Positions 3,594 through 64,000 of a DNA stretch of 64,000 bases are shown here, in pieces. The first letter of the stretch is position 1. Each line of letters opens with the position of its first letter. Source of the stretch: Schmidtea nova (taxonomy: Eukaryota); contig CM097882.1 in assembly GCA_044892505.1 (NCBI GenBank), positions 368,652,001-368,716,000 of the forward strand. The letters run 5' to 3'. Below the pieces are notes generated by a model. That model was not told the DNA's origin, did not search any database, and worked only from the letters and a program-made list of their open reading frames with translations. Both the position numbers and the translations under genes were made by a program.

Positions 3594-3595
3594 AC

Positions 3596-8340: not shown

Positions 8341-8343
8341 TTA

Positions 8344-10753: not shown

Positions 10754-12001
10754 GGGGCAGTTGAAAAAATAGAAAATTTTTAAGCGTTTATTTAAAAAAT
10801 AGAAAAGAAAATATTTTAATATAAAAAATAGAAAAGAAAATATTTTAATATAAAAAATAGAAAAGAAATTATTTTAATATAAAAAATAGAAAATAAATTA
10901 TTTTAATATAAAAAATAGAAAATAAATTATTTTAATATAAAAAATAGAAAATAAATTATTTTAATATAAAAAATAGAAAATTAAATATTTTAATATAAAA
11001 AATAGAAAATAAATTATTTTAATATAAAAAATAGAAAATTAAATATTTTAATATAAAAAATAGAAAATAAAATATTTTAATATAAAAAATAGGAAATAAA
11101 ATATCTGAATATAAAAAATAGAAAAGAAATTTATTCAATTGAAAATATAGAAAATATATAAAATCATTTGAAATATACAAAAGAAAATATATTAATGCAA
11201 TTATGGGAAATATAATTAAAATAATTTTAAAAACAGAAAATAAATTATATTAACATAAAATATAGGAGAAAATATAATAATACAATGTGTAATATTATGT
11301 GCATCCCAAAGTTACACTGGTTTTGTTTCTTTGCATAACTTTGAATGATATGTTTTTGGTCACCGCGGATTTACTGAATAACTGCATAAACTCGCCCATA
11401 CTATCAAAGGTGCTACTGATTCGAAATTCTGCAGCTAATTGATTGCATTTTAGCGCTATAATATCATGTGTATTGCTGGTTGTTGTCATGGGGTGGAAGT
11501 TTAGTTTTTGTAAAAAATCAAGACAGTATAAATAAACAGTATTGTGTTCTATAAAATATATATAATTATTGTCTTTTCAATAATTTCAATAAATTATATT
11601 GGTTTTTAATTGTTAAAATTCGTTGTATTATATTTTTAATATACCAAAAGATATAAGTGATGATCCATTGTTTCAATTGTTTAATTTAATTTTCTATTTT
11701 TTTATTAAAATATTTTATTTTCTATTTTTTTATTAAAATATTTTATTTTCTATTTTTTATATTAAAATAGTTTCTTTTCTATTTTTTCTATTAAAATATT
11801 TAATTTTCTATTTTTTATATTAAAATAATTTCTTTTCTATTTTTTATATTAAAATAATTTATTTTCTATTTTTTATATTAAAATAATTTCTTTTCTATTT
11901 TTTATATTAAAATATTTTCTTTTCTATTTTTTATATTAAAATAATTTCTTTTCTATTTTTTAATTAAATGCCTAAAAATTTTCTATTTTTTACATTTCCC
12001 C
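10754..12001. mobile_element. Non-autonomous MULE/Foldback element with tandem-repeat TIRs and a 9-bp TSD
   Basis: GGGG...CCCC termini. Arms are built of ~29-bp AT-rich units (about 10800-11150 and inverted about 11685-11960). TATTTTTAA is identical at 10745-10753 and 12002-12010. Confidence 0.88.
11295..11489 (-). pseudogene. MuDR-type transposase N-terminal remnant inside the Foldback element
   Basis: FRISSTFDSMGEFMQLFSKSAVTKNISFKVMQRNKTSVTLGC resembles the MuDR N-terminal domain pattern (F....F....EF......A......FKV.........C). Confidence 0.55.
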
Positions 12002-18983: not shown

Positions 18984-19221
18984 TGTAAAATAATCATTAA
19001 GAGGAACGAGATAGTGAGCACACATTTATTTAATTAAAAACATACATAAATATAGCGATCTAAATTACCGCAACGTAATATGTTGTCGACAAGAACTATT
19101 GCACAATAGTCTAGTCGCTTTAAGACTGTTACGTAACAGTATTGCAGTATTTTCTTGCACAGTAAATTATAAATTAATATGTGTATAAATCGTAGGACTA
19201 TTATGTCACGATATTTTCCCG
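18984..19221 (-). repeat. 5' LTR of element B (inverted; first ~4 nt lost at the breakpoint)
   Basis: Reverse-complement match to 22182-22419 with a few substitutions. Confidence 0.9.
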
Positions 19222-19226
19222 ACGAA

Positions 19227-22166
19227 GTCATCACCCAACAATGTTAAAATAGAAAGTACGCTCTGTTACAAGTGTGGGAGACCTGGACATTACAAGAACA
19301 AATGTACTATGCTAGAATGTTGGACATGCGGGAACACAGGGCACTCATCCAGACAATGTCAAAAAAGATCGCAGGGAAACGCCAGAAGAGAAACTGTAGC
19401 GCCAGCGGTTTCTCAATAACGTCGGGAATGGCGCAGGTGATAATAAAGCTTAAGGTGAACGGCAAGTGGTGCATTGGATTGGTCGATTCTGAATGTTTCC
19501 AAACAATAGCGTCAAGCAGGCTTGCGAGAAGTAGAGGCGAAACCAAGGATGTCATCTCTGTAGATGGTCGAAGAGTGCATTGCGAAGGAGAGAGCCAATG
19601 CAGAATATCCGTACGCGGATCTTGCGTTACGGTAAATTGTTTGATCATGAAAAACCTTGTAGCAAGGGTGGACGTTGTTCTGGGACTTGATGCAATTGGA
19701 CTTCTTGGAGGCGTTTGGATCAATAAAGAAGGAGTGCGATTTGGTGGATGTGCAGTTTCATCAATTGAGAATGAAGTGAGAATTGAAGATGATGATTTTT
19801 CAGCGTCATTCGATGGGAACAAATGGACCGTATCCTGGAAGTGAAAGGACAAACCTACCCTGCTGAAAAACCATGTCTCAGAATATGCAATAAAACCAGA
19901 AATTCGACAGGAGTACGAAAAGGAGGTCGAGCGTTGGATCAAAGAAGACTGGCTGATTCCAGCGAATTGCAACGATCATGGTATCGTGCCCTTGTTAGCA
20001 GCAGTGCAAGAAAACAAAGGGAAAGTCTGATCGGTTCTTGACTTCAGAGAGCTCAATAGTTTCGTTGAATGTCACACCGGTGACAGCGATGTATGTGGCG
20101 AAAGTTTGAAGAAATGGCGACAAATGGGAGATCAGGAGGTTATGCTTGATTTAAAGAATGCCTATTTGCAGTTACATGTCAGTGAGTATCTTTGGAAATA
20201 CCAAAAAGTTAGATACAAAGACTAACTGTACTATTTAACAGGATTGGGATTCGGCCTCAACTGTGCTAAAAAAATAATGTCTCAAGTGCTCAGAAAAGTG
20301 CTAAGCCTCCACCCCAGAATCAAAGTTGCGACAGAACACTACATTGATGATATCGCTGTTAATACAAGTAAAGTTCAAGTCAATGAGGTCGTCAATCATT
20401 TAGCTCAATACGGCTTGACTACAAAGCCAGCCGAATCAATTGAAAACGCAAAGGTTTTTGGGCTCAGAATAAAACGTGATCGTCAGGGCCACCTTTCATG
20501 GATCAGGGGAAATGATGTCGGCGCAATCGAAAGTGAAATCACTCGTCGGATGCTGTTCTCTATATGCGGTAAGCTTGTTGGACATTATCCAGTTGCAGGG
20601 TGGCTCAGAGTAGCGTGCAGTTATATTAAAAGAACTGCAAAGGGCACGAAATGGGATGATTTAATTGGAAAAGAATGCGAATCGAAGCTGTCAGAAGTTA
20701 TTACTCGTGTCAAATCAAACGATCCAGTCAAGGGAAAGTGGACAGTAAGTAAAAGTGAGTGTGGGGTTCTGTGGTGTGATGCGAGTAGTCTCGCCTTAGG
20801 GGTTATGCTGGTAATAAATAATGACGTCGTTGAGGTTGCTTCGTGACTCAGAAAAGGTGATGACCACTCTCATATAAATGTTGCGGAACTAGATGCGGTA
20901 CTCAAGGGTATTAACTTGGCAATACAATGGGGAGTTAAGAGAATCTAGTTGATGGTGGATTCAGCAACGGTAGTAAGTTGGTTAAAAACAGTTCTGAATA
21001 ATGAAAGCAGAATACGGGTCCATGGAATTTCTGAAACGCTCGTCAGACGCCACCTGGGGATCGTCAAAGAACTCACCGTCGACGAAAGTATATCTATCTC
21101 TGTATGTTTAGTGAAGTCAGCAGAGAACCGAGCAGATGTCCTCACGCGTGTTCCAGAAAAATGGCTGAAGCCTGGGAATCTTTTCGGATGTGTAAGACTC
21201 TCAATTGAGCAAATAAAGGCCCGCCATCGGAAACACCATTTCAGCTTAGAAAAATCAATCTACTTCATTCAATCGGAAAATCCGGAGACCAACCGAGACT
21301 GTATAAAAGAAGTCTTGAGAAACTGTACAGAATGTAGGTCAATCGACCCATTACCGATTAAATGAGAGCAAGGCACACTGGAAGTCTCGGAAAACTGGAA
21401 GAGATTGGCGGTTGACGTCACGCATCACGAGGGATCCACATTTCTGACCATGGTGGAATGTGGGCCCAGCAGATTTGCAATCTGGAGGAAAATAGATCGT
21501 GAGGACGCCCCAAACATTGTGAGAAATCTGGAGGAAGTATTTCGGGAGAGAGGCCCAGTATTGGAACTACTGATGGATAATGGGGCAAGTTTTCAATCTA
21601 ATTCTTTGAGAGAGCTTTGTTGTAGATGGAATGTTAAACCGACCTATAGATGCGCTTATCGGCCGGCTGGAAATGGGATCGTAGAAAGAAACCACCGAAC
21701 AATAAAGTGTCATGCAGCCAGGAGTCATGCAGATCCCCGAGATATCGTCTTCTGGTACAATTCCGCGCCTAGAGATGGAACTAATCAGGAAACAGCCCCA
21801 TCAGAAGGGTTGTTCAAGTATCACTGGAGATTTTACCGAGGAAAAGAAGATGAACGCTCAGTATCATGTGAATATACACCTGGGCAAAGGGTTGTTGTGA
21901 AGCCACGACAAGCAAAGTGTACTACTCAATGGCCCATTGGAATTGTAACTGGAATTAATTTCGGCACAAACATTGAAGTGGATGGAATACCGCGTCAGAT
22001 TGCAGACATCCGGCCATTAGTGGAAGAAGATATTGCTGACGAAAAATCAGAGACAGACCGAGCAAGTGAGGAGGAGATGAAAGTTACAACGCATGAGGAC
22101 AGGCCGAGACGACCACGGAGGAAGCCGCTTTATCTTGATCAGTATGATTTGGATGCATCATACTAA
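19227..22166 (+). pseudogene. pol: gag C-terminus and pol of element B (multiple stops)
   Basis: CYKCGRPGHYKNKC and CWTCGNTGHSSRQC, GGGAAAC at 19374-19380, LVDSEC protease, YIDDI RT, WCDASS RNase H, integrase AVDVTH / MDNG / GIVER. Confidence 0.9.
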
Positions 22167-22177
22167 TCACGGGGGAA

Positions 22178-22419
22178 TGTGCGAGAAAATATCGTGACAT
22201 AATAGTCCTACGATTTATGCACATATTAATTTATAATTTACTGTGCAAGAAAATACTGCAATACTGTTGCGTAACAGTCTTAAAGCGACTAGACTATTGT
22301 GCAATAGTTCTTGTCGACAACATATTACGTTGCGGTAATTTAGATCGCTATATTTATGTATGTTTTTAATTAAATAAATGTGTGCTCACTATCTTGTTCC
22401 TCTTAGTGATCATTTTACA
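22178..22419 (+). repeat. 3' LTR of element B (242 bp)
   Basis: TGTG...TACA, preceded by PPT GGGGGAA at 22171-22177. Confidence 0.9.
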
Positions 22420-50007: not shown

Positions 50008-50081
50008 TGTGAGTTATCGCGCGTTTTTTGGTGCTGTTTTTAAAATGTGTTTTGTTTAAATGTTTAGATTTTTTATTATTA

Positions 50082-50349
50082 TGCTGGGATTATGGGAGGG
50101 TTTCAAGTAATTCAAATAAATTATTAATCATTAATTGAACGACTATTGATGAGTACGTATACTAGGGATTCCACGCCCATAACCATACATAACATGACTA
50201 CTACACGCGTATGCCCTTGACTATTCCCTACTAGTCAAGTTGGTACTGCATACGGTGGTGGAAAAATGATGGGCAGGTGAGCTTTGTTGCCAAAACTACT
50301 CCCCATTTATCTTCCCTCGGGTCCTTGCTGCCGATAGAAGGTCTTACGC
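50082..50349 (+). ncRNA. Conserved structured motif, copy 3
   Basis: Perfect stems CGTATGC/GCATACG (50208-50214 / 50248-50254) and CTTGACTA/TAGTCAAG (50216-50223 / 50232-50239). Loop TTCCCTAC. Confidence 0.55.
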
Positions 50350-50620
50350 ATTTTCATTCTATGGATGTTCGCCCTACTGAATTTTTTTATCACACGCCTT
50401 TCCCAATGACTTTCCTTAATTTATCTACAATGTAATTAATCAGTCCCTGCGTATAAATGGTCGGTTTGAGAAAATTTCGGGTGCGATTTTTTTATTTCGA
50501 TGATTTCATTGTTGTTATTTTATTTTATTTAGTAACATCCCCCGATGAGAGACAAAATTTACACAGAAATACTTTTATTAAAATACTAAAAACAGGATTG
50601 TTATTTTACATGGATGTTTC

Positions 50621-51205
50621 CTAAGCGAATTCCAGACTAATCTCCTGAATCAATTCCGCTTCGGTTAAGGAGTTCAAGTGGTGGATTTGTTCGTCCAGAC
50701 GCTTCGCAAATTCTCGGCGACGACGACGCTGTCGCGATCCCATTCGATGTTTTCGAAGCTGTTGGGTTATGACCGGTGCTGACGCTATTGTTCTCGGGGG
50801 ATCACTGAGAAAAATAGGCAAATCTTCCGTTGTAAGAGAGGGGGCCAGGATGATTCCCTCTTCCGTCCCGCAAGCGACATCTTGGTGAGTGCATTGTATC
50901 CAGCGCTGAGCCGTGATCGGCCGGATTAGCGCTCGCAATTCGGAGTCGATGTAACTTCTTGTTACTGCATTTAGGCAATTTCGGAGTTCTCGCTGGACGG
51001 CATCTAGTTCCAATTTGGTTGCAGCCAGTGCTTCCTGCATTCGCTCAAGTTTTTTCGACTGGTCCTTCATTTGTTCGGGCGAGAACCACTTCGCTCTCAA
51101 TTCATCATTGGCGACCGTGAGTCGCTTGATCTGTCGCTGCTGGTCCCTCAACTTCCTCTCTTGGATTTGTCCCATGATTTTCTTGGAATTTTCTGAAGTC
51201 GGCAT
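50621..51205 (-). CDS. 194-aa ORF inside the LTR: coiled coil, Arg-rich motif, Leu-rich tail
   Basis: Intact ORF with elevated GC. RMGSRQRRRRREF. TTCAG 5 nt before the ATG. Confidence 0.6.
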   Translation of the reverse strand: MPTSENSKKIMGQIQERKLRDQQRQIKRLTVANDELRAKWFSPEQMKDQSKKLERMQEALAATKLELDAVQRELRNCLNAVTRSYIDSELRALIRPITAQRWIQCTHQDVACGTEEGIILAPSLTTEDLPIFLSDPPRTIASAPVITQQLRKHRMGSRQRRRRREFAKRLDEQIHHLNSLTEAELIQEISLEFA

Positions 51206-51523
51206 GTTATCTGAATATTATAACGATAAATTCGCTGGAGGACCTATCAACAATTCTATTTTATTTAGTCTACTATTTACTATTGTTAAACGAGATGCAT
51301 ATTAATGTTTTTAATTATTGAGTTCTCTACAAAATTATTTAACTATCTAATCATTGAAGACTCAAAAGATTTATTGAACTAATTTTATATTAATAAATGA
51401 ATTTCCTAATGACTATAACAACTACAATACTAAATCTACATGACAACACTATTAACAAAATGAGACACTTCCGAATTTTTAAAACATTTATTAAATTCAA
51501 AAAACAGGCGGCCATTGATTCCG

Positions 51524-51991
51524 CTATTCATCTTCGGTCATTTTTCCTCGATATGAAAATATCGATCTGATTTGCAAATTTGTGTTGATATTGGACGAGG
51601 CCTGCTGAAAACGGATCCTCTCAGCTTCCCGAAGGGGTCGTATTGCTGTATTGAACTTGAACCCCAATTCCTTGAAGGTAGAGGCTGGAATGAACCCCCA
51701 ATATATCACACATTTCGGGAATCCTCCCTTATCCAACATCAGGACGAACCAGGCGGCGTGCCATGATTCGAATTCCTCGTCTGGAATGATTGGCCAACTA
51801 GCGCATCCCCGGTACCATACGTGATGCCGTGGATGGTCCCATACTGTAAAGGGACAGGCGGTTTCAAGCTCTCGGCGCCATGCCCACATTTTTTGATGGA
51901 TTTGCTGTAAAATCTCGAAAGGAGCCGGCTTTAATGGGCTAACTCGGGCTCGTTCTTGTCGTTTTTTGATAGTGTATCTATGCTTAGTCAT
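51524..51991 (-). CDS. 155-aa Trp/aromatic-rich ORF inside the LTR, function unknown
   Basis: Intact ORF with elevated GC in an AT-rich context. TTCAG 15 nt before the ATG. Confidence 0.55.
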   Translation of the reverse strand: MTKHRYTIKKRQERARVSPLKPAPFEILQQIHQKMWAWRRELETACPFTVWDHPRHHVWYRGCASWPIIPDEEFESWHAAWFVLMLDKGGFPKCVIYWGFIPASTFKELGFKFNTAIRPLREAERIRFQQASSNINTNLQIRSIFSYRGKMTEDE

Positions 51992-52250
51992 GATTCCAAA
52001 ACGATGCTGAATTTTATAATAGTTACAATTTACATCAATAATTAATTATAGTAAATGTTATCTCTCATCGTGATACCCTTATTATTTGCCTTCCCCTTAG
52101 ACCTTAGCTGAAATCACGAGAAACTGTCGTTCGCTATGGTATGCATTACTCTCGTATCTACTTAGCTTTATCTGTTTACGATCACTATTATAGTTGAAAA
52201 AAAAAAAAAAATGGTGATTTGTCTGCTTGGATTTTCAAAATATTGATACC

Positions 52251-52520
52251 TCAAAACGGAAGCTCTCTCACGTCATGTATCCCTAGCTTATTCGAAAAAC
52301 GCTCCTTTGTATCAAATGCGGTCGACATAATTTTCCTAAGGTTTATTAGACGTTTATTAAACAGCTGCGCTGTGGTGAGGGTGAAAAATTGTGCCTCCTC
52401 CCGGTTAACAAATTCTTTCATATCTTTAAGCTTTATCAAAAAATTATCGTCCCCTCTGTAGCTAAAATGATCGGAAAATAATTCCCCGGATTTGTTGGGT
52501 GTCCCATGTGCAAGTCTCAA
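52251..52520 (-). CDS. Possible 89-aa ORF inside the LTR
   Basis: Open frame with plausible composition. No recognisable motif. Confidence 0.3.
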   Translation of the reverse strand: MRLAHGTPNKSGELFSDHFSYRGDDNFLIKLKDMKEFVNREEAQFFTLTTAQLFNKRLINLRKIMSTAFDTKERFSNKLGIHDVRELPF

Positions 52521-52894
52521 CCACTACTAATAAAATTAGGTTTTGCTATTTATTACTTTACCGTGTGTGGAGCCCTCGAGCACCACGCCACGGACGGACA
52601 CCTTGGGAACCTAAAGCTCCCAACGGCGCGAGATTAATATGATAGATTAAACAGTTTAAATACGACATAAATCAAAATGAGATGAATAATATATTATAAT
52701 ATGATAATGACATATGAATACAACATCAAATAATGTACCAAAAATACCTCAATTGAATTCTGAAAATTTATTGATCAAAATCGGTCTAAACGGTGATCGT
52801 CGTCGGGGCAATGTGCAATCTAATGCGAATTTTTAGTTAAAGTCTAAATTTCAGTCTAACAAAGTCTACTGAAGTCTCACTCTAGTCAAACGTC

Positions 52895-52962
52895 TCAGTC
52901 TGATTTTATGAAAAATCTGATCAGTATTTATACTGATCAGTCGTGTCTAGACCGACCAATCA
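52895..52962 (-). promoter_or_regulatory. LTR core promoter: inverted CCAAT, TATAAATA, Inr-like TCAGAC
   Basis: CCAAT at 52956-52960. TATA at 52925-52932 inside a perfect 10-bp inverted repeat. TCAGAC at 52898-52903, about 25-30 nt downstream. Confidence 0.65.
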
Positions 52963-53531
52963 GGTTCGGCCATTTTCAGGGTGGTTTTTAATTATTGTTC
53001 TTGATTCTAATTAATTTTTATTTTTTAGATTGTATTCTTCCTCGGAGGTCTGGGTTTCAAAAACAATTATTCAATAACAAGTACTTTTATTTTGTTTTAA
53101 TTACCATTATTTGTATTTATTTTGTTTTTTAGATGTCTCCTGGGCCAGTTAATATCTCGAAATTCCTCTATTTTTATTTATAGCTTGTACTTAGTTTGTC
53201 TATATTTTTATTATATTACTCCTTTCTTTTAATAAATAAATATTCCCCTTTTTATCTTATTTTTCTCTTTTTTGTTTTAATTAATCTACTTTTATTTCAC
53301 TGTTCTCTCTATTTGGCTGGCCCAACATCACTCGGGGACCCCTAAAATTGCGTCCCGCAATTAATTATACATTTACACCTATATCATCATACATAAAAAT
53401 TAAGCAGATAAATGTCAATTTACATATACACAAAGAATCACGTAAGGTGATAGATTTTATACGTAAGCACAAGGTCATATTATTGTTAAATGTAAGTGGA
53501 TCATACATAAAGTGAATGTAATATATCAGTT

Positions 53532-54104
53532 TTACACAAGCTCTTTGATTTCATGATTGGTATTGGATTGGATTGGGGTTCTTTCGCTGATTGTTCGTAG
53601 TTCGTAGTGGCTTTGGATTCGGTTTAGGTGTTTTCTCATTCGCTTTTGGGTTCTGATGTCTTGTATTGTTGTTCGATTCAGGATGACATGTTTTTGTTTT
53701 AAGATCTTCACTCGGTATGATGTTATGAGGATTGTGATCGCGATAATGGTCACGCTGAGTGCAAGGATTATTATAATTGCGATGATCCATTTTTCTTGAT
53801 ATTCTATCTCTGCTTGGGCTAAGCTTTTTATGGGTTCTCGACCTTCTTTTAGGGTTTTTCTGATTGTTTTCAATTTGATTCGATGTTCATATAGGACCTG
53901 TTGAAATTTTTCATCGTTTGGGTTGTCTGATGTTATCTGTTGAAGTTGGGTGATTTCTTGTGTTGCTTCGCTGATTAGTTTATCTAGTTCTTGATAGGTT
54001 TTCTCGGGTAGGGCTCGTAGCTCCTTCTCTGTGAGTTGAAGATCTTCTCTTTGTAGGGTGATTGTTATTAGGTATAGGAATATCGGTATTCTGAGCTTTT
54101 TCAT
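53532..54104 (-). CDS. Cargo ORF4: 190-aa predicted type-I membrane protein with a luminal coiled coil
   Basis: Hydrophobic N-terminus, heptad-rich middle, WIIAIIIILALSVTIIAITILITSY transmembrane segment and a basic tail. Confidence 0.75.
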   Translation of the reverse strand: MKKLRIPIFLYLITITLQREDLQLTEKELRALPEKTYQELDKLISEATQEITQLQQITSDNPNDEKFQQVLYEHRIKLKTIRKTLKEGREPIKSLAQAEIEYQEKWIIAIIIILALSVTIIAITILITSYRVKILKQKHVILNRTTIQDIRTQKRMRKHLNRIQSHYELRTISERTPIQSNTNHEIKELV

Positions 54105-54186
54105 ACTGTTTTCTTTACAGATAGGTCAATACAATTTGACACTACATTTCATACAATTATTTACAAAATTATATTTTCCGCTTTAT

Positions 54187-55248
54187 TTACACAATCGTCT
54201 CGTTTGGTTCGTAGAAACCTTCGTCCTGAGGCTCTACTTGGTTCGTGGGGAGTGGTATCCAAACAACCCTGCTCCTCCACATTTCGACTTCATCTCGATA
54301 CATGTGAGATATCTGGATCTCCTCGTCTAGCAAATATTCTAGGTAATTTGCTTGTTCTGTTAATGTTTCTATTTGTTCCTCTAATTCGATTACTTTTGTC
54401 TTTTGTTCGTCTTCTTTTATCATTTTTGTTACGGCTGCCGTTATACTTGCTTCTTTGGGTATTACTGATACTGTTACTCGTTTCTGTTTCAATTCTTCGT
54501 TTTCTTTCATCAAATTCGTTAAATTTTCCTCATAACTTTGCTTCGCTTCCTTTAACCTTTCTCTGGTTCTTTTTAGCTCTATTTTCCTCTGGGTAATCAC
54601 TCCTTGATAACCATTTATATCTCTCTTCATCTCTTCTTCTTTCTGATTCCATATTCCGGTGAGCATAGATTTCAGTTGTTCTTGATTAGCTAGTTCTTCT
54701 CCCATTCTTTGAACTTGATAGGTTAGTCCTTTAATTTTCTTTGCTTGTTCGCGGATAAATTGCTGTCTTTTTGTATTCCATCTTTTATTTAACACTTCCT
54801 GGTTGATTTTTTGCTCTAACTCGTCTTTTAGTTCATCGATCTCTTTATATAACTTCCAGTCATCACTATAAGCTGTCCTTTCTATTATTTCTCTAGCTTT
54901 TTCGTAAGATTCTTTCGCTTCTTTCTTCCAGTATCTTGCTTGTTCTGTAATCGAATACATCTTGTGTTCAGCTTCCATCTGCTGTCTGTCTCTTTCCTCT
55001 CGTCGCTCTTTCATCATTCTCTGGTAATATTCCTTTTGTTGTTGTAGCATTTTGTATACTTCTTCTATTTTTTCTCGACTTCTTTGACTTGATCTTTCCG
55101 CTTCTTTTAATAATTCGGCTTGTCTCTCTATCTCCTCTTGCTTTCCATAATATGCATTGACCCATATTTCAATCTGTTCTAGATGATCGCTAATCGCTTC
55201 TGCTTGATGCATCGTAATTTCCTGTAAGCATACCTCGATATTTCCCAT
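54187..55248 (-). CDS. Cargo ORF3: 353-aa long coiled-coil protein ending ETIV
   Basis: Intact E/K/R/Q-rich ORF. Confidence 0.8.
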   Translation of the reverse strand: MGNIEVCLQEITMHQAEAISDHLEQIEIWVNAYYGKQEEIERQAELLKEAERSSQRSREKIEEVYKMLQQQKEYYQRMMKERREERDRQQMEAEHKMYSITEQARYWKKEAKESYEKAREIIERTAYSDDWKLYKEIDELKDELEQKINQEVLNKRWNTKRQQFIREQAKKIKGLTYQVQRMGEELANQEQLKSMLTGIWNQKEEEMKRDINGYQGVITQRKIELKRTRERLKEAKQSYEENLTNLMKENEELKQKRVTVSVIPKEASITAAVTKMIKEDEQKTKVIELEEQIETLTEQANYLEYLLDEEIQISHMYRDEVEMWRSRVVWIPLPTNQVEPQDEGFYEPNETIV

Positions 55249-55362
55249 TGCTATAATTACAGAATGAAAATTTTAATCGGTTTATATATCAGTTATTTTT
55301 GTTTATATAATAATTTTTTGGGTATTTAACTGTACATATTATTTACATGATCACTTCTCTTG

Positions 55363-56745
55363 TTACGTCAACCATCCTTTTCTATCTGCTTTCTCATTCC
55401 TTTCCATTTCTATGTATAGGGTGTCTGCATATAATCGTTCCCATAGGCTTTCTTTCGTTATAAACATCGGTTCTCCCGCTGCTAATCCACATTCTGTGGT
55501 TGGTTTCTCGCTCGTACTCGCATGTTTCTCTGTCTCAAAGAATTTTTCTACTGGTTTTGTTACACTTCTGATTCTTACAATGACTCCTACTTTCAAGGGC
55601 CATTCTACTAGGTCGTCGTATTCTCCTTTACATAGCGAGAAAAATATTGACACATGTGTTCCTCGTCCTCTTCCGTCTCCATTTGGGTATAGCTTCAATC
55701 TCACTTTAGCTCCGTTTCTCCATAAATAAAATGGTGGGCTTATTACTGCTGTTTTCGTCATATTTCGGGCCTCTGTTAATTTGTTTCTAAAATCTGTCAC
55801 TTTCCACACATATGGTGCGATTGGTAGCTTTTCCTCGGTATCCTGGGTGAGTTTGTTGTACTGGATTTTCATTCCTTTAGCCAATTCTTCGATAGCTTTT
55901 ATCTTTTCCTCCATCTTTTCTCGTGTTAGTTCGAATTGCTCTCTGGTTTCCAACAGTAGGTTTACCATTATCTTGTGTGACTCTATTTCTCTTTCTAATT
56001 TTTTGATTGTTTGTTCGGTTTCTTTTGTTGTTTCGTTTGTCATTTCCGCATGCTTTAGCAATGCTTCCTCCAGATGTTGTTTCATGGTTTGTTGCGTTCT
56101 TTTCTCCATACATCCCTGTTTGTTATAAGGACATTCCCTTGGTTTCTCCGTGCACACTTTCCAATGTTCTTGTAATTTTACTTCTACCGTTATTTCGCAT
56201 TCGTTTGAACATATTCCTACATATTGTCTACATACTTTCTCCTCTTTTACATTCAGGTGTTCTTCTTCGATCTTTCTCCTCGTTTCTCGAGCTCCACAAT
56301 ATTCGCATAGACTTTCCTCTTCTTTACATTCATCTTTGTGCTGCTCTTTATTCTTTATAGTTATTTTTTGTTGGCATTTGTTACATTCAGTTCTCTTCTC
56401 TTCGCAGTTCTCCAGATGGTTCTCGAGATCGCGTATTTGTCCTTGCCATATACATGGTTGATTTATACATTCGGTTTTCGTGTTCATGATTTCTCTCTGA
56501 GTTGCTCTATCTGGTCCGGTTTCTTCGAATTTTATTTGTCCTTCTTTGCATTCTGGACATTCTGGTGGTCTTTTCATACTTAACTCGTGTATGCATTTGG
56601 TACATACTCTGCATCCGCATAGGGTTTGTCTTGGTTTCAATATTATGTTTTTACAATTTACACAAGTGAGTCTCTGACTCCATTTCCTGTTCTCGGCTCT
56701 CAAAATTTCGATTATCCGCTCTTCGGCTTTTCCTTCTGTATTCAT
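55363..56745 (-). CDS. Cargo ORF2: full-length TRAF-family protein (RING, TRAF zinc fingers, coiled coil, MATH)
   Basis: CVNC...CGCRVC..C...CPEC RING. Repeated C..C...H...C fingers. YVWKVTDF...SPPFY...KVRLKLYPNGDG.G.GTHVSIFF...GEYDDLVEWP MATH domain. Confidence 0.93.
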   Translation of the reverse strand: MNTEGKAEERIIEILRAENRKWSQRLTCVNCKNIILKPRQTLCGCRVCTKCIHELSMKRPPECPECKEGQIKFEETGPDRATQREIMNTKTECINQPCIWQGQIRDLENHLENCEEKRTECNKCQQKITIKNKEQHKDECKEEESLCEYCGARETRRKIEEEHLNVKEEKVCRQYVGICSNECEITVEVKLQEHWKVCTEKPRECPYNKQGCMEKRTQQTMKQHLEEALLKHAEMTNETTKETEQTIKKLEREIESHKIMVNLLLETREQFELTREKMEEKIKAIEELAKGMKIQYNKLTQDTEEKLPIAPYVWKVTDFRNKLTEARNMTKTAVISPPFYLWRNGAKVRLKLYPNGDGRGRGTHVSIFFSLCKGEYDDLVEWPLKVGVIVRIRSVTKPVEKFFETEKHASTSEKPTTECGLAAGEPMFITKESLWERLYADTLYIEMERNEKADRKGWLT

Positions 56746-56836
56746 TCTACAATGATATATACACTTGATTTGTTATCTATTTTTTGATTTTTCTTGTTTT
56801 TGTTTTTACATATTTACAATTTTTCGCTTTATTTAT

Positions 56837-57193
56837 CTACGGCTCGTTTGTTGAATCTGGTTCTGGGTCATTTTCTGATCTGTTTATTGCCCAATTTGTC
56901 CATCCATCCTCTGCTTCTTCTGTCTCTCCCATTGTTAAACGGTCTATCTCTATTGCTTGTCTCTGATTTATGTCGCTCATCACTTGATTCTCTCTGGTAA
57001 GTTGCGTTATCAATCTCTGTTGCTCCTCGATTCTGTGGAGTTGTTCAAAACTATTATTATAACTTTCGGATAACAAATTCTGTTTCTCAATTAACTGATT
57101 TTGTAGTGAGTTGATTGTTCGTATTAACATGTCACACTGGGCTTTCCATCGCATAGCCATAGTAGTTTCTGCTATTTCTTCCTGTTCGTTCAT
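56837..57193 (-). CDS. Cargo ORF1: 118-aa coiled-coil protein with an acidic tail
   Basis: Intact Q/E-rich heptad ORF, co-oriented with its neighbours. Confidence 0.7.
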   Translation of the reverse strand: MNEQEEIAETTMAMRWKAQCDMLIRTINSLQNQLIEKQNLLSESYNNSFEQLHRIEEQQRLITQLTRENQVMSDINQRQAIEIDRLTMGETEEAEDGWTNWAINRSENDPEPDSTNEP

Positions 57194-57318
57194 TTTCTAA
57201 ATTATATACATTAATCGTTTTCTCGATTTCTCTTTTTATATTTTTATAATATCGATACCCATACTATTACGGTAATGCATTGTTATTTACACTATTATTT
57301 ACAGTCATATCCCGCCTC

Positions 57319-60300
57319 CTATATCACCATCACTGTCTTTCCTTCGTATCGCTCTTCATCTTCTATTTGTCTCCAAAATTCTTTACCTTTCGTCCTCCTT
57401 TGGAATTCTTTATGTACTTCTTCCGGTAATTCTATACTGTAGTTCATAATCTTTATATCTGGCCAATGTGTTATTGGTTTCTTGTTGAATACATCATATA
57501 TCCATATTATTAATAATACTGTTATTACTGGAATAGTTGCTGCTAGTATTCTTAGACCAATTAGTTCTCTAACTTGTTTGTTTACGTCCATCTTCGTAAT
57601 TTCACTCTGGTTAATCATTGGTCCGTATTGTCCCTTTAGTTTATTTAGTAGTTGTTCTCGTTCTTGTTGTTTTCTTTTAACTTCTTTAATTACTTCTTCC
57701 GGCGTCCATCTTGCGTAAGGGTCTATTACTACTTGTTCTGCGTCCATTCGTTTCGTTGTCTGACTTAATTCTTTAAATTCGAGTTTTCTCACTTTCCCTT
57801 TGGACGTTGAGTTTACCGGTGTGTAGTACGTTTCGCATCTTTCCTGCTGATTTCCCAATATGTCCGTCTTTTCTACCGCACATATCTCGTATTCTCTATT
57901 AAATTTCAGATTTTTGATACTCATTTCTTCTTTTCCTTTTATGTTTTCGCAGTATCGTGGCTGTCTTTCTTTTTGTTCCTGAACTACTGCCCAACATATT
58001 TCTAACGTTTTATTGTCTATTCTCCATAGTATAAGAGTTGTTGTAGTATTCTTTTCGGTTTTTCTTTGTATTTCTTGGTTTTTCTGTTGTCCATTAGGTT
58101 TAAAGGTAGTGGTATACCTCGCTTTTCCTTTGTTCCGTTGTCTTCTACTTTTTCGCGTTGTCTTTCCAACTCTTGTTCTGGTGGGTGTTTTATATAATTT
58201 GCATTCCAATTCATTTACTGTTATTTTGTCGCTCTTCCTGATCAGGCATATTTCGTACGTTTGATTACTTTCTAACCCTTCTATCTGTATTGTGGTTGTT
58301 CCTCTGTTTGTTCGACATTGCGGCGGTGTATTCTGGTTTGTTTTCTTTTCCTGCTTCTTCCAGCATACGCCTTTGACGTCCGGTTCTATTCCGGTTAACT
58401 CTAACATTATAGTTGTTCTCCGTTTGGTGCGTTTATTTCTTCTTCCTCGTCGTATGAACTTTATTGTTTCCCCAGGTTGAAATGTTTTACAACTTGTCGT
58501 TCCTTTCTTGTGTCTTTCTTTTTCTAGTAAACATAGTTCATACGTCCTGTCTGCTTTTACTTCTGATATCTTGGTTACTTTATTTGTTTTCCTTTTCCGA
58601 CTCGTCTTTATTTCGCTTACGCCAATTTCTTCGTTGCTTCTGGCCCAACACTTTGGGTTGGTGTTTTGGGTGTCGTTCATCTCTGTTACTGCCATTGTGT
58701 CAATGTCTATCCCTTCTTCTAACCGTTTTAACATTGTTAATAAGAGTGCTAAACATAGTAATTCTGTTTGGTAGGTCACTCTTTCGGTCTCGTTTGTGGT
58801 TACTCTTGCTTCGGGCCTGTCTATGGTAATTTGTATAGTTGGCGTTGTTCGTCTGTCTATTGTCTGGGGTTTTTTGTTTTTTGTTCCTTGGGTCTCTGTT
58901 TTTCCACACTTTCCTACGACGTAGTCTCCTTTGGATGTCTGCTGTACTGTTATGGTTACTTTGGGTGTTAGGTAGTTTGCACATGCGATTGTGTTGTGTG
59001 ATCTTGGATTCTTTTGTTTTCTGATGGTGCATATTTTGTACCAAGTATCTAGCTCTAAGTCATCGATCTCTATGATTTCTTGTTCATATTCTGAGATCCT
59101 GCAATCCATTGGACTATTTTGTCCCGATATTTTGTCCTTTTTTGACCAACATACTCGTTCGATTCCTTTTGCGTTTCCAATTTGTATTGTCGCTCTTTCT
59201 TCACATATCATTCCTTGAGTTGGACTAATTAAGGTCATGATTACCGTTAGTAATAATAGTTCTGGTTTAAAGAATGGGTTTATTGTTTGTTTGTAGCCTG
59301 TTCTTTTTGCTTCGTTTTTATTTTTATAGTTGTTGTTTCTTTGTTTCCCAAATTCATTTTTCTTATCATTTTTCTCTGTGTCCCTTCCTTTCTCTTCACT
59401 GTCCTCTTCATCTAATAACTCATGATCCTCTGGATTTTCTCGAGTACTATCGTCGTCGTTTCCTGTATTGTCGCCTCCCCTTTGGTCGTTGAAAATGTCG
59501 TCCTCGACATTAATTGCTTCTATCATTTTTTCATACGTTATGGTTGTGAGTATACTTGCTTCATATTCTTGTGTTACTGCCTGCTTAGGTATTTCCTTAT
59601 CGGTTAATTTACAATCTAGAATCTCTTTCTTGGCTTTTATCCAATTATTAAGGTACGTTTTCATTAGTTCTTTCCATTTGTCCGTACGTTCTGTTTCCTT
59701 TGGGTTGTTTGTGAATCGTAAATCTTTTCTTCTCATGAAGATATCTATTATCTTTGGCCATTTGTTTATTATTAATGCACACTTTATATACAAATTTTGG
59801 CCTTGTTCCATGCACTCGTTGATCCTGAATGCTGGTTCATTGGTGTTTGGGTTCATCCAATTGAGTATTGCTTCAGTTAGTTCAGCGTTATGCATCATGG
59901 AATGTACGCTAGCTTTTTTAACTGTCCTTGTAAGGTATTCTATTTCCTCCTGATTTGTGATTGTTTTTATAAAATTTATCACTTCCCAATTGTGCGTTAA
60001 CAACGCTACGTCTAGTATTGAGCTGTCTTTGTTCGTTCTTCCCATGAGTCTTGCACCTGCTTCGTACAGTTCCTGTAACACTCGGGTTTTTGTGTTCGCT
60101 CTTGCTGCGAATATCATGAGGGTATCTCCCTTTTTATCTTTCATGTTCATGTCACTTCCGCAATCTTGCATCAACCGTGCAATTTCGACTACCCTCCTAT
60201 CTTTTCCTGCTCGTAAGGCTCTATGTATTGGCAATACTCCATTCTTTGTTAATAAGAAAGTCACTGGCATTTCTCTTTTTATGATCATCATATCGTTTTC

Positions 60301-63300
60301 ATTGTAAGTTCCTTCCGCATATGCGTGTACCTTTTCCACAATTGCTCCGAGTATCTCCAGTGTATGTTTAGAATTTTCGAATTCTGGTAATAGTTCTTTT
60401 GCTTTGTCCTGTATCGCATCTAACCTTTCTTGATATGGTACCTCTGCGCTGAAAAGTGGTGTAAATTTCCTTTTGCTTTCTCTTTCCTTTTGACATAGGA
60501 ATTGTTTGCATTTTTCGGGGTGGTTTAATGTGTCTATTAGTTTGTCATACTCCTCCTCCACCGTTTTATATTTGTCTTGAAAATTGGATATATCTTTGTA
60601 AGTTATCGTCTTGGTTAGCGATTTTGCACACCATTCCCTAATTTTCCTGAATAATGCTTCTTTTTCATTTTCGAATTTACACTCCTCTTTGTTTTTGGAA
60701 ATTATGATATTTCTTCTGTCTAATAACGTTAACAGTGTTTTCTGGTCACAAACTAATTTTAATAGGAATTGTAATAACGCGTTTTGTCCTTTACTGTATA
60801 CTTCGTTTATATTTAATACCCATGTATCATTTTCGGATCTTTTCCATTTTATTAGCTTGCGTATTGTTTTGCAGTTACCGATTTTTATTGCCTCCTTGAT
60901 TATATCACCTTTGATCAGTTCGTCTATTTCCCAAGTGGCCTTCTCGATTATTTGTTTGAGCATTATCTGATTTGAGCTCCATATTGCGTGATTCAAGACT
61001 GTTTTGTTTTCTCTATCGCGTTCCGTCCAGTTGAAATCGGCATTTATCAAAAGGTCTATTATTGCTTTATCCGATTTGTAGATGGCTGCTACCATTAATG
61101 GTGTTTCTTGTTCGCTATTCCCAAAACCAAGGTGTTGGTTTGTTTCCTTAGCGATTTTTAGAAATTCTTTTACTCTTTCTACTTCTCCCCATTTTATGGC
61201 GTTATGTAATGCTGGTTGTCCTCCTATGTCTTGTAGTGAAAGTATTTCTGGAATTTTCTCCAGTAGTTCTGAAACGACTGGTTTTGTTGGTAGTCCCCTT
61301 GCGTAATCACTAATTATCGACTGAATGTCTCTTAATATATCGTCTCTGACATGCCATTTTCCCATTATTTCTCTGGCTTTTAGTACAATTTCCTTGTTTC
61401 TTTTTTCTTGTTGATTGTTTTCTGCTTCTGTACTTTCATTGGTTGCTCTGAGCATATTCATTCTGGCTGTCTGGGATCTGGTTATTATTCGTTCTTCTGG
61501 CGCTGTGGTTATTGTCTTTGGTACTTTTTTGCATCTGCATGTATTAACGTATATTGGTCGTATCAATGGTCGATTAACAAGTTTTACCTTCACATTGTTT
61601 TCCTTTTTGTATATAACTTCGTAAGGGCCTTTTCCTGGTCTTTGTAGTTTTTTAACGGTTCCTAGTATTATTTCTGGGGTTTCTATCATTACCCAATCTC
61701 CGGGTTTAAGATCATTTGTTTTAACATTTTTCTTTTGATCGTGTAGGTCCTTGTAACTTTCTTGATAAAACTTTATGTTTAGTTCTGCTGTCTTCCATAT
61801 CTCTTGCATTCGTTCTTTGAATTTGGTGACGTAATCATCTTCCTCCATATATTGAGACAAGGGTGGTTGATATTCAAGATCTATTGGCATATTGCATTCC
61901 CTTCCATACATTAATTGAAATGGACTCAATTTTGTTGCTGCGTGTATCGACATTCGGTATGCTATTAGACATAGCTTTATGTACTCATCCCAATCTGTTT
62001 GGTGTTTGCTTACATAATTGGATAACATTCGAATCAATGTGCCGTTAAATCTTTCCGTTTGTCCATTGGTTTGCGGATGATATGGTGACGTTCGTAATTT
62101 GGCTATTCTGAAGTAATTTGTTACTTCATCTAATATTTCACTCATAAAATTTGTCCCTTGATCTGTCAGTATTTGTTTCGGGGTTCCGTATCGACAACAT
62201 ATTTCCTCTACTAAAATTCTTGCTACGGTCTTTGCTTTTTGATCCGGCATCGCAAATGCTTCAGGGAATTTAGTCAAATAATCCGTTATTACCAATATAT
62301 ATTGATTCCCGTTTAAACTTTCTGGCAATGGTCCTATTACATCCATCGCAATGGTAGTCATTGGTTCCGCTGGTATTGGCATGGGTTTTAAGGGATTTTT
62401 CCATTTCTTCCCACTATCCTTTCTTGTGGCACAAGTTAAACAGTTCTTTATCCATTCCTTTACGTCTTCGTCCATTGTTGGCCAATAATATTTTTGTCTC
62501 ATGCGATCTAATGTTTTCTTATCGGACATGTGTCCTCCCAACTTTCCGTCGTGGTATTGAGTTATTATCTCTTTTCGTCTATTACCTGGCAGACACATTA
62601 ATCGTTTTTCTCCATCCTGTATTAATAACCATCCTTTTTCTATTGTGTATCGATGTTGGTATTTCCTCATGTGTTCTTTTAACTCCGCATTGTCTTTGAA
62701 TACATCCATATTCCGTGAGCTTAGGAATTCTATGATGGGTCTTAGTTCTTTATCCTCTTGCTGATCTTTCTTTAACTCGCTGAAATCCAAATCCTCTGCT
62801 ATCATTATGCATATTCTTTGCACTTCTGGGTCTGTTAATTCTGGAAACGTTAATCTTGACATGCAATCTGCGTTGGCATTCGCTTTTCCTGATTTGAATT
62901 TTATATCTGGTGAATATTCTTGTAATTGCATCGCCCATCTCATTAATCTGCTGGATGTTTCCTTATGTTGTCCTAGCCATACCAGTGGTTGATGATCCGT
63001 GGTTATGCATATAATGTGTCCCCATAATAGATATTTAAAGTGTTTTATTGCTAATATTATTGCCAATGCTTCTCTCTCCGTTACTGAATAATTCTTCTCG
63101 TGTTTCTTGAATGTTCTGCTATAATATCCGATCACTCGTTCTTTACCTTCGTCATCATATTGTCCTAACACTGCTCCTGCTGCATATCCACTTGCGTCAG
63201 TCGCGAGTAAGAACGGCTTCTTGAAATTCGGGTGAACCAATATTGGTGCAGTTATTAGCTTATCTCTCAATGTTTCAAAGGCTGTTTGTTGTTCGCTTCC

Positions 63301-63999
63301 CCATATGAACGATACGTCTTTCTTTACTAGCTCCTGGATTGGTTTTGCAATTCCTGCGTAATCCTTTATGAATTTTCTATAGTAACCGCATAATCCGAGA
63401 AATTCTTGGATCTGCGTTATAGTCTTTGGTATTGGACATTCTTTTACTTTATCAATGTTTCTGGGATCCGGTTCCTTTCCTTTTGCGGACACAATATGTC
63501 CTAAGAATGTCACTTTCTCTTTTGCCCAATCACATTTCGATGGTTTGAGCTTGAGTTTCCATTGTCTCAATCTCACAAATACATCTCTGATATCTTGGAT
63601 GTGTTGTTCAAATGTGCCTGAATATATTAACAGATCGTCGATGTAAACCATGCATTGTTTTATGCCGTGGGTGACAAAATTCATACATCTTTGAAATGAT
63701 GCTGGCGCATTGGTTAGTCCAAATGGCATTTTCCTAAATTGGTACAAGTCTCTTCCGATAGTGAAAGCAGTTTTCTCTTTGTCTTCCTCCTTCATTTTAA
63801 TTTGCCAGTATCCGCTTTTCAAATCCAATGATGTAAAATATGCCGCTCCTTGTAATGTCAATAACATCTCGTTGATGTCCGGTAATGGGTAGGTATCCCT
63901 TTTTGTAACTGCATTTAATCTCCGATAATCAATACAAAATCGTTGTGTTCCGTCTTTCTTTTTCACCATTACAACTGGGAATTGCCACGGTGAGCAGCT
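57319..63999 (-). CDS. pol: Pol (RT, RNase H, integrase, GPY/F) fused in frame to ankyrin repeats and a signal / FN3-like / TM module; open beyond the window edge
   Basis: MPFGL, YIDD, LATDAS, HHCC, AMDVIG, TDQG, QTER and GPY (about 64000-61600). Ankyrin motifs GQPALHNA, ETPLMVAA, LPIHRA and DTLMIFAA (about 61225-59950). Hydrophobic signal at 59212-59265. Four CW...L....YEIC...C repeats. TM at 57497-57565. No stop over 2216+ codons. Confidence 0.92.
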   Translation of the reverse strand, partial: SCSPWQFPVVMVKKKDGTQRFCIDYRRLNAVTKRDTYPLPDINEMLLTLQGAAYFTSLDLKSGYWQIKMKEEDKEKTAFTIGRDLYQFRKMPFGLTNAPASFQRCMNFVTHGIKQCMVYIDDLLIYSGTFEQHIQDIRDVFVRLRQWKLKLKPSKCDWAKEKVTFLGHIVSAKGKEPDPRNIDKVKECPIPKTITQIQEFLGLCGYYRKFIKDYAGIAKPIQELVKKDVSFIWGSEQQTAFETLRDKLITAPILVHPNFKKPFLLATDASGYAAGAVLGQYDDEGKERVIGYYSRTFKKHEKNYSVTEREALAIILAIKHFKYLLWGHIICITTDHQPLVWLGQHKETSSRLMRWAMQLQEYSPDIKFKSGKANANADCMSRLTFPELTDPEVQRICIMIAEDLDFSELKKDQQEDKELRPIIEFLSSRNMDVFKDNAELKEHMRKYQHRYTIEKGWLLIQDGEKRLMCLPGNRRKEIITQYHDGKLGGHMSDKKTLDRMRQKYYWPTMDEDVKEWIKNCLTCATRKDSGKKWKNPLKPMPIPAEPMTTIAMDVIGPLPESLNGNQYILVITDYLTKFPEAFAMPDQKAKTVARILVEEICCRYGTPKQILTDQGTNFMSEILDEVTNYFRIAKLRTSPYHPQTNGQTERFNGTLIRMLSNYVSKHQTDWDEYIKLCLIAYRMSIHAATKLSPFQLMYGRECNMPIDLEYQPPLSQYMEEDDYVTKFKERMQEIWKTAELNIKFYQESYKDLHDQKKNVKTNDLKPGDWVMIETPEIILGTVKKLQRPGKGPYEVIYKKENNVKVKLVNRPLIRPIYVNTCRCKKVPKTITTAPEERIITRSQTARMNMLRATNESTEAENNQQEKRNKEIVLKAREIMGKWHVRDDILRDIQSIISDYARGLPTKPVVSELLEKIPEILSLQDIGGQPALHNAIKWGEVERVKEFLKIAKETNQHLGFGNSEQETPLMVAAIYKSDKAIIDLLINADFNWTERDRENKTVLNHAIWSSNQIMLKQIIEKATWEIDELIKGDIIKEAIKIGNCKTIRKLIKWKRSENDTWVLNINEVYSKGQNALLQFLLKLVCDQKTLLTLLDRRNIIISKNKEECKFENEKEALFRKIREWCAKSLTKTITYKDISNFQDKYKTVEEEYDKLIDTLNHPEKCKQFLCQKERESKRKFTPLFSAEVPYQERLDAIQDKAKELLPEFENSKHTLEILGAIVEKVHAYAEGTYNENDMMIIKREMPVTFLLTKNGVLPIHRALRAGKDRRVVEIARLMQDCGSDMNMKDKKGDTLMIFAARANTKTRVLQELYEAGARLMGRTNKDSSILDVALLTHNWEVINFIKTITNQEEIEYLTRTVKKASVHSMMHNAELTEAILNWMNPNTNEPAFRINECMEQGQNLYIKCALIINKWPKIIDIFMRRKDLRFTNNPKETERTDKWKELMKTYLNNWIKAKKEILDCKLTDKEIPKQAVTQEYEASILTTITYEKMIEAINVEDDIFNDQRGGDNTGNDDDSTRENPEDHELLDEEDSEEKGRDTEKNDKKNEFGKQRNNNYKNKNEAKRTGYKQTINPFFKPELLLLTVIMTLISPTQGMICEERATIQIGNAKGIERVCWSKKDKISGQNSPMDCRISEYEQEIIEIDDLELDTWYKICTIRKQKNPRSHNTIACANYLTPKVTITVQQTSKGDYVVGKCGKTETQGTKNKKPQTIDRRTTPTIQITIDRPEARVTTNETERVTYQTELLCLALLLTMLKRLEEGIDIDTMAVTEMNDTQNTNPKCWARSNEEIGVSEIKTSRKRKTNKVTKISEVKADRTYELCLLEKERHKKGTTSCKTFQPGETIKFIRRGRRNKRTKRRTTIMLELTGIEPDVKGVCWKKQEKKTNQNTPPQCRTNRGTTTIQIEGLESNQTYEICLIRKSDKITVNELECKLYKTPTRTRVGKTTRKSRRQRNKGKARYTTTFKPNGQQKNQEIQRKTEKNTTTTLILWRIDNKTLEICWAVVQEQKERQPRYCENIKGKEEMSIKNLKFNREYEICAVEKTDILGNQQERCETYYTPVNSTSKGKVRKLEFKELSQTTKRMDAEQVVIDPYARWTPEEVIKEVKRKQQEREQLLNKLKGQYGPMINQSEITKMDVNKQVRELIGLRILAATIPVITVLLIIWIYDVFNKKPITHWPDIKIMNYSIELPEEVHKEFQRRTKGKEFWRQIEDEERYEGKTVMVI

Positions 64000-64000
64000 T

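Follow-up and report, generated by a model that had tools for sequence, protein, structure and literature searches.

The Element and Its Boundaries

The window analysed here is a stretch of 64,000 nucleotides (nt) of Schmidtea nova DNA (assembly GCA_044892505.1, contig CM097882.1, positions 368,652,001 to 368,716,000), and on its minus strand positions 50082 to 64000 make up the 3' half of a Ty3/gypsy long terminal repeat (LTR) element 28,426 bp in length. The whole element extends from 50082 to 78507, the numbering being continued past the window edge into the adjoining stretch (L001 and L002). Judged from its layout, it is very probably of the Burro type. Its long polyprotein is followed on the same strand by open reading frames (ORFs) of 118, 460, 353 and 190 amino acids (aa), the second of which encodes a full-length TRAF, and then, inside the LTR, by two more that encode 155 and 194 aa. 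These genes and the domains added to the polyprotein are referred to here as cargo.

Both LTRs are 3,246 bp long with TG...CA ends, are 99.94% identical to each other (one mismatch, one gap) and enclose an internal region of 21.9 kb. Pfam scans revealed protease (PR), reverse transcriptase (RT), RNase H (RH) and integrase (IN) in the Ty3/gypsy order PR-RT-RH-IN. An exact 22-mer spanning the junction between the stretch in the place of the polypurine tract and the 3' LTR was found in 16 of 23 copies (Table 1). A preliminary description, made from the letters of the window alone, had proposed a young giant LTR retroelement here and suggested extending the contig to find gag and the 5' LTR. Both were found beyond the window, together with the target-site duplication (TSD) and the primer-binding site (PBS), and the near identity of the LTRs agrees with a young age. 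The proposed boundary at 50008 and the predicted TSD, TCCC, have to be replaced: the LTR terminus lies at 50082, the TSD is ATTA, and positions 50008-50081 are flanking repeat DNA outside the LTR.

Copies and Subfamilies

A query with the TRAF gave 150 scored matches among 2,546 candidates, of which, by hand count, about 86 were 94-100% identical (subfamily A) and 64 were 84-86% identical (subfamily B). The exact LTR-PBS junction occurs 497 times in the genome, and a reversed control gave 0. Twenty-three copies were examined, namely the present copy, four top hits and 18 copies taken at even steps down the list of best-scoring TRAF matches. The element is multicopy with a fixed gene order, which was complete and identical from Pol to the LTR ORFs in 21 of the 23; the exceptions are one internally deleted B copy that kept the small ORFs and one A copy without the 155-aa LTR ORF. 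Both LTRs were in range for 14 of 15 A copies, with pairs 99.2-100% identical and an own 4-bp TSD in all 14.

Two further subfamilies, D and E, were found by a MATH family search, and two D copies and one E copy were read. Subfamily D has the same gene order, with cargo 33-56% identical. In subfamily E, with RT 92% identical to that of the present element, a MATH domain lies inside the polyprotein between the two ubiquitin-like segments and the downstream cassette is absent; its frames comprise about 4,990 codons, or about 4,890 from Met.

Deleted forms were also observed. In one D copy an internal deletion has fused the dUTPase-like and FN3 parts into a single frame (L117 and L066 are among the deleted copies), and a deleted B copy is without most of the polyprotein. 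Counted by hand, about 35 of the 150 rows of E have a frame of 1,332-1,368 codons and likely form a non-autonomous subfamily. At L003-L004 and L042, Polinton-like ORFs (by eye) adjoin a shorter Burro relative with the layout Gag-Bcl2-Env-Pol-signal-FN3-anchor.

The Polyprotein

A minus-strand frame of 2,226 codons (57319-63999) enters from the window edge and encodes RT, RNase H, integrase, ankyrins, four Cys-bearing repeats and a membrane anchor. Followed past the window (L001), the frame continues with a dUTPase-like segment, the protease, Env, a Bcl-2-like segment, two ubiquitin-like segments and Gag. The Gag region, upstream of RT, has three CCHC knuckles. Env lies in frame between Gag and Pol and consists of a signal peptide, a fusion glycoprotein of the PF24664 family (Pfam, E=1.3e-69) and a membrane anchor. 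The two ubiquitin-like segments before Env (by eye) and the dUTPase-like segment between PR and RT (by eye and position) are conserved and gave no Pfam match. In addition, a 153-aa ORF 5' of Gag (L002) ends in an IAP-type RING, for which cIAP2 and XIAP were the best PDB matches when a sister copy was queried.

The Pol frame had been described as uninterrupted. This is true inside the window, but two frame breaks lie further 5' in this copy, one after the Gag knuckles and one before the protease, and the 5' RING ORF contains a stop; the copy is therefore young but not autonomous. Likewise, the ankyrin and FN3 membrane proteins, reported as cargo genes, are present as domains but not as separate genes, because they share the open frame of Pol, of which they form the C-terminal 1,360 residues.

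The ankyrin region matched generic ankyrins in the PDB. A short word, a candidate protease site, recurs at the RH-IN and IN-ankyrin borders; it was hit 7 times in A and 6 times each in D and E, against shuffle averages of 1.2-1.3 with maxima of 5-7, the motif having been picked after inspection of the data. Its recurrence suggests that the ankyrin part is likely released, being cut free from the polyprotein at the candidate protease site. For the Cys-bearing repeats, the predicted structure is all-beta (predicted local distance difference test score, pLDDT, 80.6), and Foldseek returned mostly FN3 domains at template modelling (TM) scores of 0.45-0.65, none at E<=0.001. A profile search found 28 proteins, and 17 of the 21 that were scanned carry Pfam fn3. 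The subfamily E counterpart matched Pfam fn3 at E=0.007, contactin-4 was matched at E=0.16, and atlas hits of 0.86 serve as a lead only. On this converging, weak-to-moderate evidence, the four repeats are assigned with modest confidence to FN3 domains.

Genes Downstream of the Polyprotein

As the preliminary description stated, the ORFs that it names share one orientation, here that of the minus strand, and run open and intronless within the window. Its second membrane protein is the predicted 190-aa single-pass protein, and its long coiled coil with a PDZ-type end is the 353-aa ORF (ORF353), which terminates in ETIV; both coiled coils were called by eye only. The E-T-x-V terminus of ORF353 was present in 23 of 23 A and B copies and reads ETDV in D, where ORF353 is 47% identical. 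In subfamily E, E-T-L-V terminates the tail of the FN3 protein, not ORF353. This terminus is a putative class I PDZ-type motif. The two ORFs inside the LTR are additional to the genes described earlier. Homologues of the 194-aa LTR ORF occur in subfamilies B, D and E; no homologue was found among 2,672 candidates, no Pfam family was shared, and atlas hits stayed below 0.9.

Purifying Selection on the Cargo

The cargo genes are under purifying selection and are functional for the element. The ratio of nonsynonymous to synonymous substitution rates (dN/dS) was calculated as pooled pairwise NG86 values between A and B, with intervals that resample codons only; synonymous sites are near saturation for several domains in this comparison, and the pairs are not independent. 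Cargo ORFs range from 0.08 to 0.29 overall, with all 95% intervals below 0.55 (Table 1; FN3 repeats 0.14-0.26, RING ORF 0.08), compared with 0.55-1.13 for non-coding control segments read as codons and 0.69-1.61 for off-frame controls. Values within families point in the same direction, except that the RING part of the TRAF was uninformative within A (0.11-1.79) and the stalk was relaxed within B (0.49). The preliminary description would have been contradicted by single-copy host genes outside the LTR pair or by neutral decay among copies. Because the cargo is multicopy inside the LTR pair and its dN/dS lies far below the controls, neither applies, and the cargo is functional for the element on both counts.

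Table 1. Features of the element. dN/dS values compare subfamilies A and B unless stated otherwise; L001 and L002 denote the adjoining stretch.
Feature	Position	Strand	Remarks
TSD ATTA, 4 bp	50078..50081	no strand	second copy L002:4508-4511, just outside 5' LTR
3' LTR, 3,246 bp	50082..53327	-	99.94% identity to 5' LTR
LTR ORF, 194 aa, Arg-rich stretch, no known family	50621..51205	-	dN/dS 0.16 within A; off-frame 0.94, 1.52
LTR ORF, 155 aa, no known family	51524..51991	-	dN/dS 0.11 within A, 0.27 within B; Pfam blank
Stretch abutting 3' LTR	53328..53345	-	in place of polypurine tract; conserved, not canonical, not purine-only
Predicted single-pass membrane protein, 190 aa	53532..54104	-	hydropathy peak at residues 103-136; dN/dS 0.26; present in D
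Spacer 4, 82 nt	54105..54186	-	TGTAAATA at 54158-54165; CAG 1 nt before ATG
Charged coiled-coil-like protein, 353 aa, E-T-x-V end	54187..55248	-	dN/dS 0.09
Spacer 3, 114 nt	55249..55362	-	TGTAAATA at 55340-55347; TAG 2 nt before ATG
Full-length TRAF: RING-type finger, zinc fingers, coil, MATH	55363..56745	-	Pfam, PDB; dN/dS 0.14 (0.10-0.19); stop-free in 20/23 copies
Spacer 2, 91 nt	56746..56836	-	two TGTAHATA; TAG 1 nt before ATG
Small coiled-coil-like ORF, 118 aa	56837..57193	-	dN/dS 0.11; stop-free in 23/23 copies; 52% identity in D
Spacer 1, 125 nt	57194..57318	-	three TGTAHATA; TAG 3 nt before ATG
Polyprotein end: stalk, predicted anchor (~57478-57567), tail, stop	57319..57774	-	dN/dS 0.27 (stalk and anchor)
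Signal-peptide-like internal segment, then four FN3-like repeats	57805..59271	-	repeat alignment, model, profile search
FN3-like repeats	58900-59229, 58480-58794, 58165-58434, 57805-58074	-	invariant C-W, Y, C, C aligned
Ankyrin region, two degenerate clusters	59560..61404	-	Pfam Ank_2 E=5e-14; PDB; dN/dS 0.08-0.14; in frame after integrase
Candidate protease site, integrase/ankyrin junction	61450..61464	-	similar word at RH-IN border
RT, RNase H, integrase	61540..63999	-	Pfam, PDB match; closest database relative 49% identical
PBS, 18 nt, tRNA-Pro	L002:1239-1256		complementary to the genome's tRNA-Pro(TGG)
5' LTR	L002:1263-4507, beyond window		pair partner of 3' LTR

Identity and Origin of the TRAF

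The TRAF is complete, as first described: Pfam recognized zf-TRAF and MATH, the RING, zinc-finger and MATH regions matched structures of TRAF2/3/5/6 (TRAF2/3/5 for MATH, TRAF2/5/6 for the RING regions), and the metal ligands are kept in alignment with host-type TRAFs. The subfamily D TRAF is 53% identical. The MATH tree comprised 39 rows; seven of them come from elements, including the polyprotein-embedded MATH of subfamily E, and group as one clade (96/95), which sits in a 100/100 group with host-type TRAFs of the genome and one database protein. This placement suggests that the element TRAF was likely taken once from the host TRAF family. A database search with the TRAF found 12 proteins, none of them close. 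That an intronless frame indicates retro-capture was considered and rejected, as nine host-type TRAF rows in the genome also have open frames longer than 300 codons.

The genome is AT-rich with a large MATH expansion, which fits the planarian TRAF expansion reported in PMC6109357. A dense cluster of host-type MATH/TRAF genes, some in tandem, lies at about 405-455 Mb of contig C2 of the assembly (most of loci L080-L109) and stands apart from the element TRAFs in the tree. In a genome of this kind, a count of MATH domains combines element copies and the host cluster, which bears on the expansion described in PMC6109357.

Spacers and Expression of the Downstream ORFs

The downstream ORFs are separated by four short spacers, and an acceptor-like YAG ends within 8 nt (<=8) of the start codon at 18 of 21 starts across the four subfamilies, compared with a mean of 3.8 and a maximum of 12 in shuffles; the limit was fixed after looking, and the subfamilies are related. 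The counts are 6/7 in A, 6/7 in B, 6/6 in D and 0/1 in E, with backgrounds of 71/311 and 25/163. The word TGTA[ACT]ATA occurs seven times in the 412 nt of the four spacers (dinucleotide shuffles 0.34, maximum 4), six times in one B copy, six times in one D copy, twice after the last ORF of E and never in the LTR; a second B copy also has six, with its fourth spacer mis-cut at 1,002 nt. Only two of 20 host-type MATH stops are followed by it. The word is identical to the Pumilio element and includes UGUA, the CFIm word. A canonical AATAAA is present in one of the four spacers of the present copy.

In the leader, a splice-donor-like GTGAG lies near +70 in 14 of 14 A copies with a PBS match. It was found in two of six B rows, at other places, and in neither one D nor one E copy, so that a leader donor conserved across subfamilies was rejected, the position being consistent in A only. 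Contigs from four sequencing runs (kind unrecorded), in which all 30 bins were covered, contained no usable splice joint. The spacers of 82-125 nt are within the limit of 300 nt or less between same-strand genes that PMC12582326 gives for flatworm operons, and spliced-leader trans-splicing in S. mediterranea is described there as well. Taken together, the spacers and YAG sites point to a likely spliced or operon-like expression of the downstream ORFs. Cis-splicing from leader donors and operon-like trans-splicing both fit, and we rank cis-splicing ahead.

Function of the Cargo

Our preferred interpretation, to which we assign a probability of about 0.6, is that this is a very young copy of a giant Burro-type Ty3/gypsy element whose selected cargo likely aids the element through host TRAF/IAP/Bcl-2 survival signalling. 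A polyprotein of about 5,000 residues would be cut by the element protease and signal peptidase into predicted products comprising Gag, the ubiquitin-like and Bcl-2-like parts, the fusion glycoprotein, the Pol enzymes, the ankyrin part as a free protein and a second surface protein with the FN3 repeats. The small ORFs would likely be translated from separate mRNAs, with an acceptor just before each ATG. The TRAF, together with the IAP-type RING and Bcl-2-like proteins, may then sustain a cell that expresses the element for long enough that new insertions can occur, and the present copy, broken upstream, would rely on other copies for Env and Pol. What recommends this interpretation is that three separate families of the cell-death pathway (TRAF, IAP-type RING and Bcl-2-like) travel together in the element. 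In S. mediterranea, host TRAF knock-down increases cell death, according to PMC7586133.

Several results weigh against it. The signal of selection means that these proteins are important to the element and says nothing about their activity, and the copies, sampled from the best TRAF matches, favour intact ones and were compared in pooled pairs that are not independent. The Bcl-2-like segment has a weak Pfam match (E=0.063) and no PDB match at E<=10, and BIR was not found in Pfam scans of the element or of the scanned parts of subfamilies D and E. A serine-rich stretch in the MATH domain of the element TRAF is unlike TRAF5 and the host-type TRAFs, and the target of the TRAF may therefore have changed. 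The approximately unbiased (AU) test did not reject a tree in which the host TRAFs form their own clade, separate from the element TRAFs (p=0.25), so that the tree does not place the donor in any one host lineage. No TRAF-binding motif was noticed by eye in the element's own tails. Finally, the shorter Burro relative, with RT 55% identical, has no ankyrin and no TRAF was seen in it, so such cargo is optional for the wider group.

Instead of acting on death or immune signalling, the cargo could serve particle assembly and cell-to-cell spread, which is possible, although clearly less probable. FN3 would then be a second surface protein for attachment or for blocking superinfection, and the TRAF, RING, ubiquitin-like parts and PDZ-type tail would direct trafficking and budding. 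In all four subfamilies the FN3-anchor module shares its frame with Env and Pol. A distant relative that lacks ankyrin has one FN3-like repeat and an anchor (by eye) after its integrase; for both reasons the module looks older than the TRAF cassette. The position of the terminal motif, on the FN3 tail in E and on ORF353 in A, B and D, is also in line with this explanation. However, it leaves the Bcl-2-like segment and the IAP type of the RING unexplained, and the dN/dS of the FN3 repeats is above that of Env, as expected for a host-facing protein.

The preliminary description had set the TRAF and the IkB-like ankyrins beside viral mimics of proteins in TNF/TLR/NF-kB signalling and had inferred an element that manipulates innate immunity or apoptosis; in its specific form, the ankyrins and the TRAF would be mimics that block an NF-kB/TLR-type pathway. 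Ankyrin and TRAF do co-occur under selection, and PMC13563047 places the induction of planarian TRAFs downstream of TBK1. This reading is nevertheless improbable: the ankyrin region had 61 PDB matches, the 60 best of which include no IkB, and PMC13563047 also describes clear NF-kB homologues as hard to find in S. mediterranea, its Rel-homology domain (RHD) factors as divergent and the best NF-kB candidate as without effect on transgene silencing. That the cargo consists of neutral passengers, or of host genes beside Pol by chance, is hardly credible: copies do gather breaks, with the long ORF (span 14.96 kb) unbroken in only five of 15 A and none of six covered B copies, but the cargo is selected, ordered and enclosed by the LTRs as described above, and D has retained the similarity of ORF353 and the TRAF.

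The survival-signalling interpretation can be carried further, in a form that we regard as rather doubtful. The downstream genes might be signalling genes captured from the host and arranged as a eukaryotic operon. Each cistron would have an acceptor as well as a signal of the 3'-end or Pumilio type and would be freed by the flatworm spliced-leader machinery, while the Arg-rich protein of the LTR would spare the full-length RNA; together with the FN3 surface protein and the TRAF/IAP/Bcl-2 kit, this would be a complex virus-like system. If so, such a genome-resident system would control whether pluripotent stem cells survive. The gene-by-gene evidence of selection and the distinct cargo genes addressable by RNA interference (RNAi) make the question of function testable in a planarian.

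Neighbouring Repeats

The other transposons of the window had been described as decayed. They do carry stops, but a 6.3-kb Ty3/gypsy element at 2625-8952, itself with several stops, has LTR pieces 99-100% identical, so the element is not the sole young insertion in the window. The element at 18984-22419 has the order PR-RT-RH-IN and is bounded by two inverted 238-nt sequences that are 97% identical; the purine tract and TG...CA of its right end give it the appearance of an LTR element whose 5' LTR is inverted. An AT-rich tandem array with a 29-nt unit occupies 10700-12002 and has an inverted sister array 0.5-0.8 kb off. Beyond the window, a young element with inverted ends of about 730 nt (99.9%) begins about 60 nt outside the 5' LTR (L002:4570-9446) and has copies at other loci. 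The tRNA-Pro(TGG) pattern has 1,105 matches genome-wide, and a tandem array of this tRNA with a period of 308 nt, whose 3' end is complementary to the PBS of the element, was found at 459.6 Mb of contig C1 of the assembly (L021).

Comparison With Known Systems

The preliminary description named the Burro elements of S. mediterranea as possible relatives, and the layout Gag-Ubl-Bcl2-Env-PR-RT-RH-IN-ankyrin indeed matches published Burro (PMC6431247). Shared with Burro/GYPSM1 are a single ORF of about 5,000 residues, Gag with CCHC knuckles, Env between Gag and Pol, PR, RT, RH, IN, ankyrins, TRAF cargo and a high copy number. Conserved segments also stand at the places of the ubiquitin-like, Bcl-2-like and dUTPase-like parts of Burro. 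The ORF of Burro1 has 4,873 residues, against about 4,890 from Met in subfamily E with MATH inside the frame. The outline is thus already known: TRAF/MATH, ankyrin, BIR, Bcl-2-like, ubiquitin-like, dUTPase-like and Env domains have been published for Burro, and interference with host apoptosis and ubiquitination has been proposed (PMC6431247). According to PMC8532177, smedwi-2 knock-down increases BURRO1 RNA in cells of the gut and the epidermis, and BURRO1 RNAi brought no improvement of the phenotype.

There are also differences. Burro is described as longer than 30 kb (internal region up to 25 kb), compared with 28,426 bp (21.9 kb) here. Its MATH lies inside ORF1 or in an upstream accessory ORF, whereas here a full-length TRAF is a separate ORF downstream of Pol. 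BIR is reported for the S. mediterranea elements; it was not found here, and a separate IAP-type RING ORF is present. The FN3 membrane protein, the three other downstream ORFs, the LTR ORFs and the spacer signals lie outside the description of Burro in PMC6431247. New relative to that description are therefore the four FN3 repeats with an anchor after integrase, the downstream RING-TRAF, E-T-x-V in four subfamilies, two selected LTR ORFs and the spacer signals. A literature search found no FN3 cargo, LTR ORFs or cargo splicing described for Burro, some of which the primary description or the Repbase report may hold. The element is not filed under Burro1-4, because BIR was not found and there was no reference sequence for comparison.

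Complex retroviruses such as HIV, HTLV, MMTV and foamy viruses resemble the element in having an Env-like gene, small 3' ORFs with acceptor-like sites, ORFs in the LTR, a small Arg-rich protein and a C-terminal E-T-x-V. Here, in contrast, Pol is of the Ty3/gypsy type, Env is in frame in Gag-Pol and belongs to PF24664 (the Monjiviricetes fusion type), and the cargo comes from the host TRAF, IAP and Bcl-2 families, with no sequence homology shown.

A further parallel is Cer1 of C. elegans, likewise Ty3/gypsy, for which PMC3315495 describes a spliced mRNA that carries the host spliced leader SL1. Cer1 has one spliced mRNA and its trans-splicing is shown, whereas here a row of captured genes is separated by short spacers and trans-splicing is proposed only; if the spacers do mark trans-spliced cistrons, this would be a mode of multi-gene expression that is new for a retroelement.

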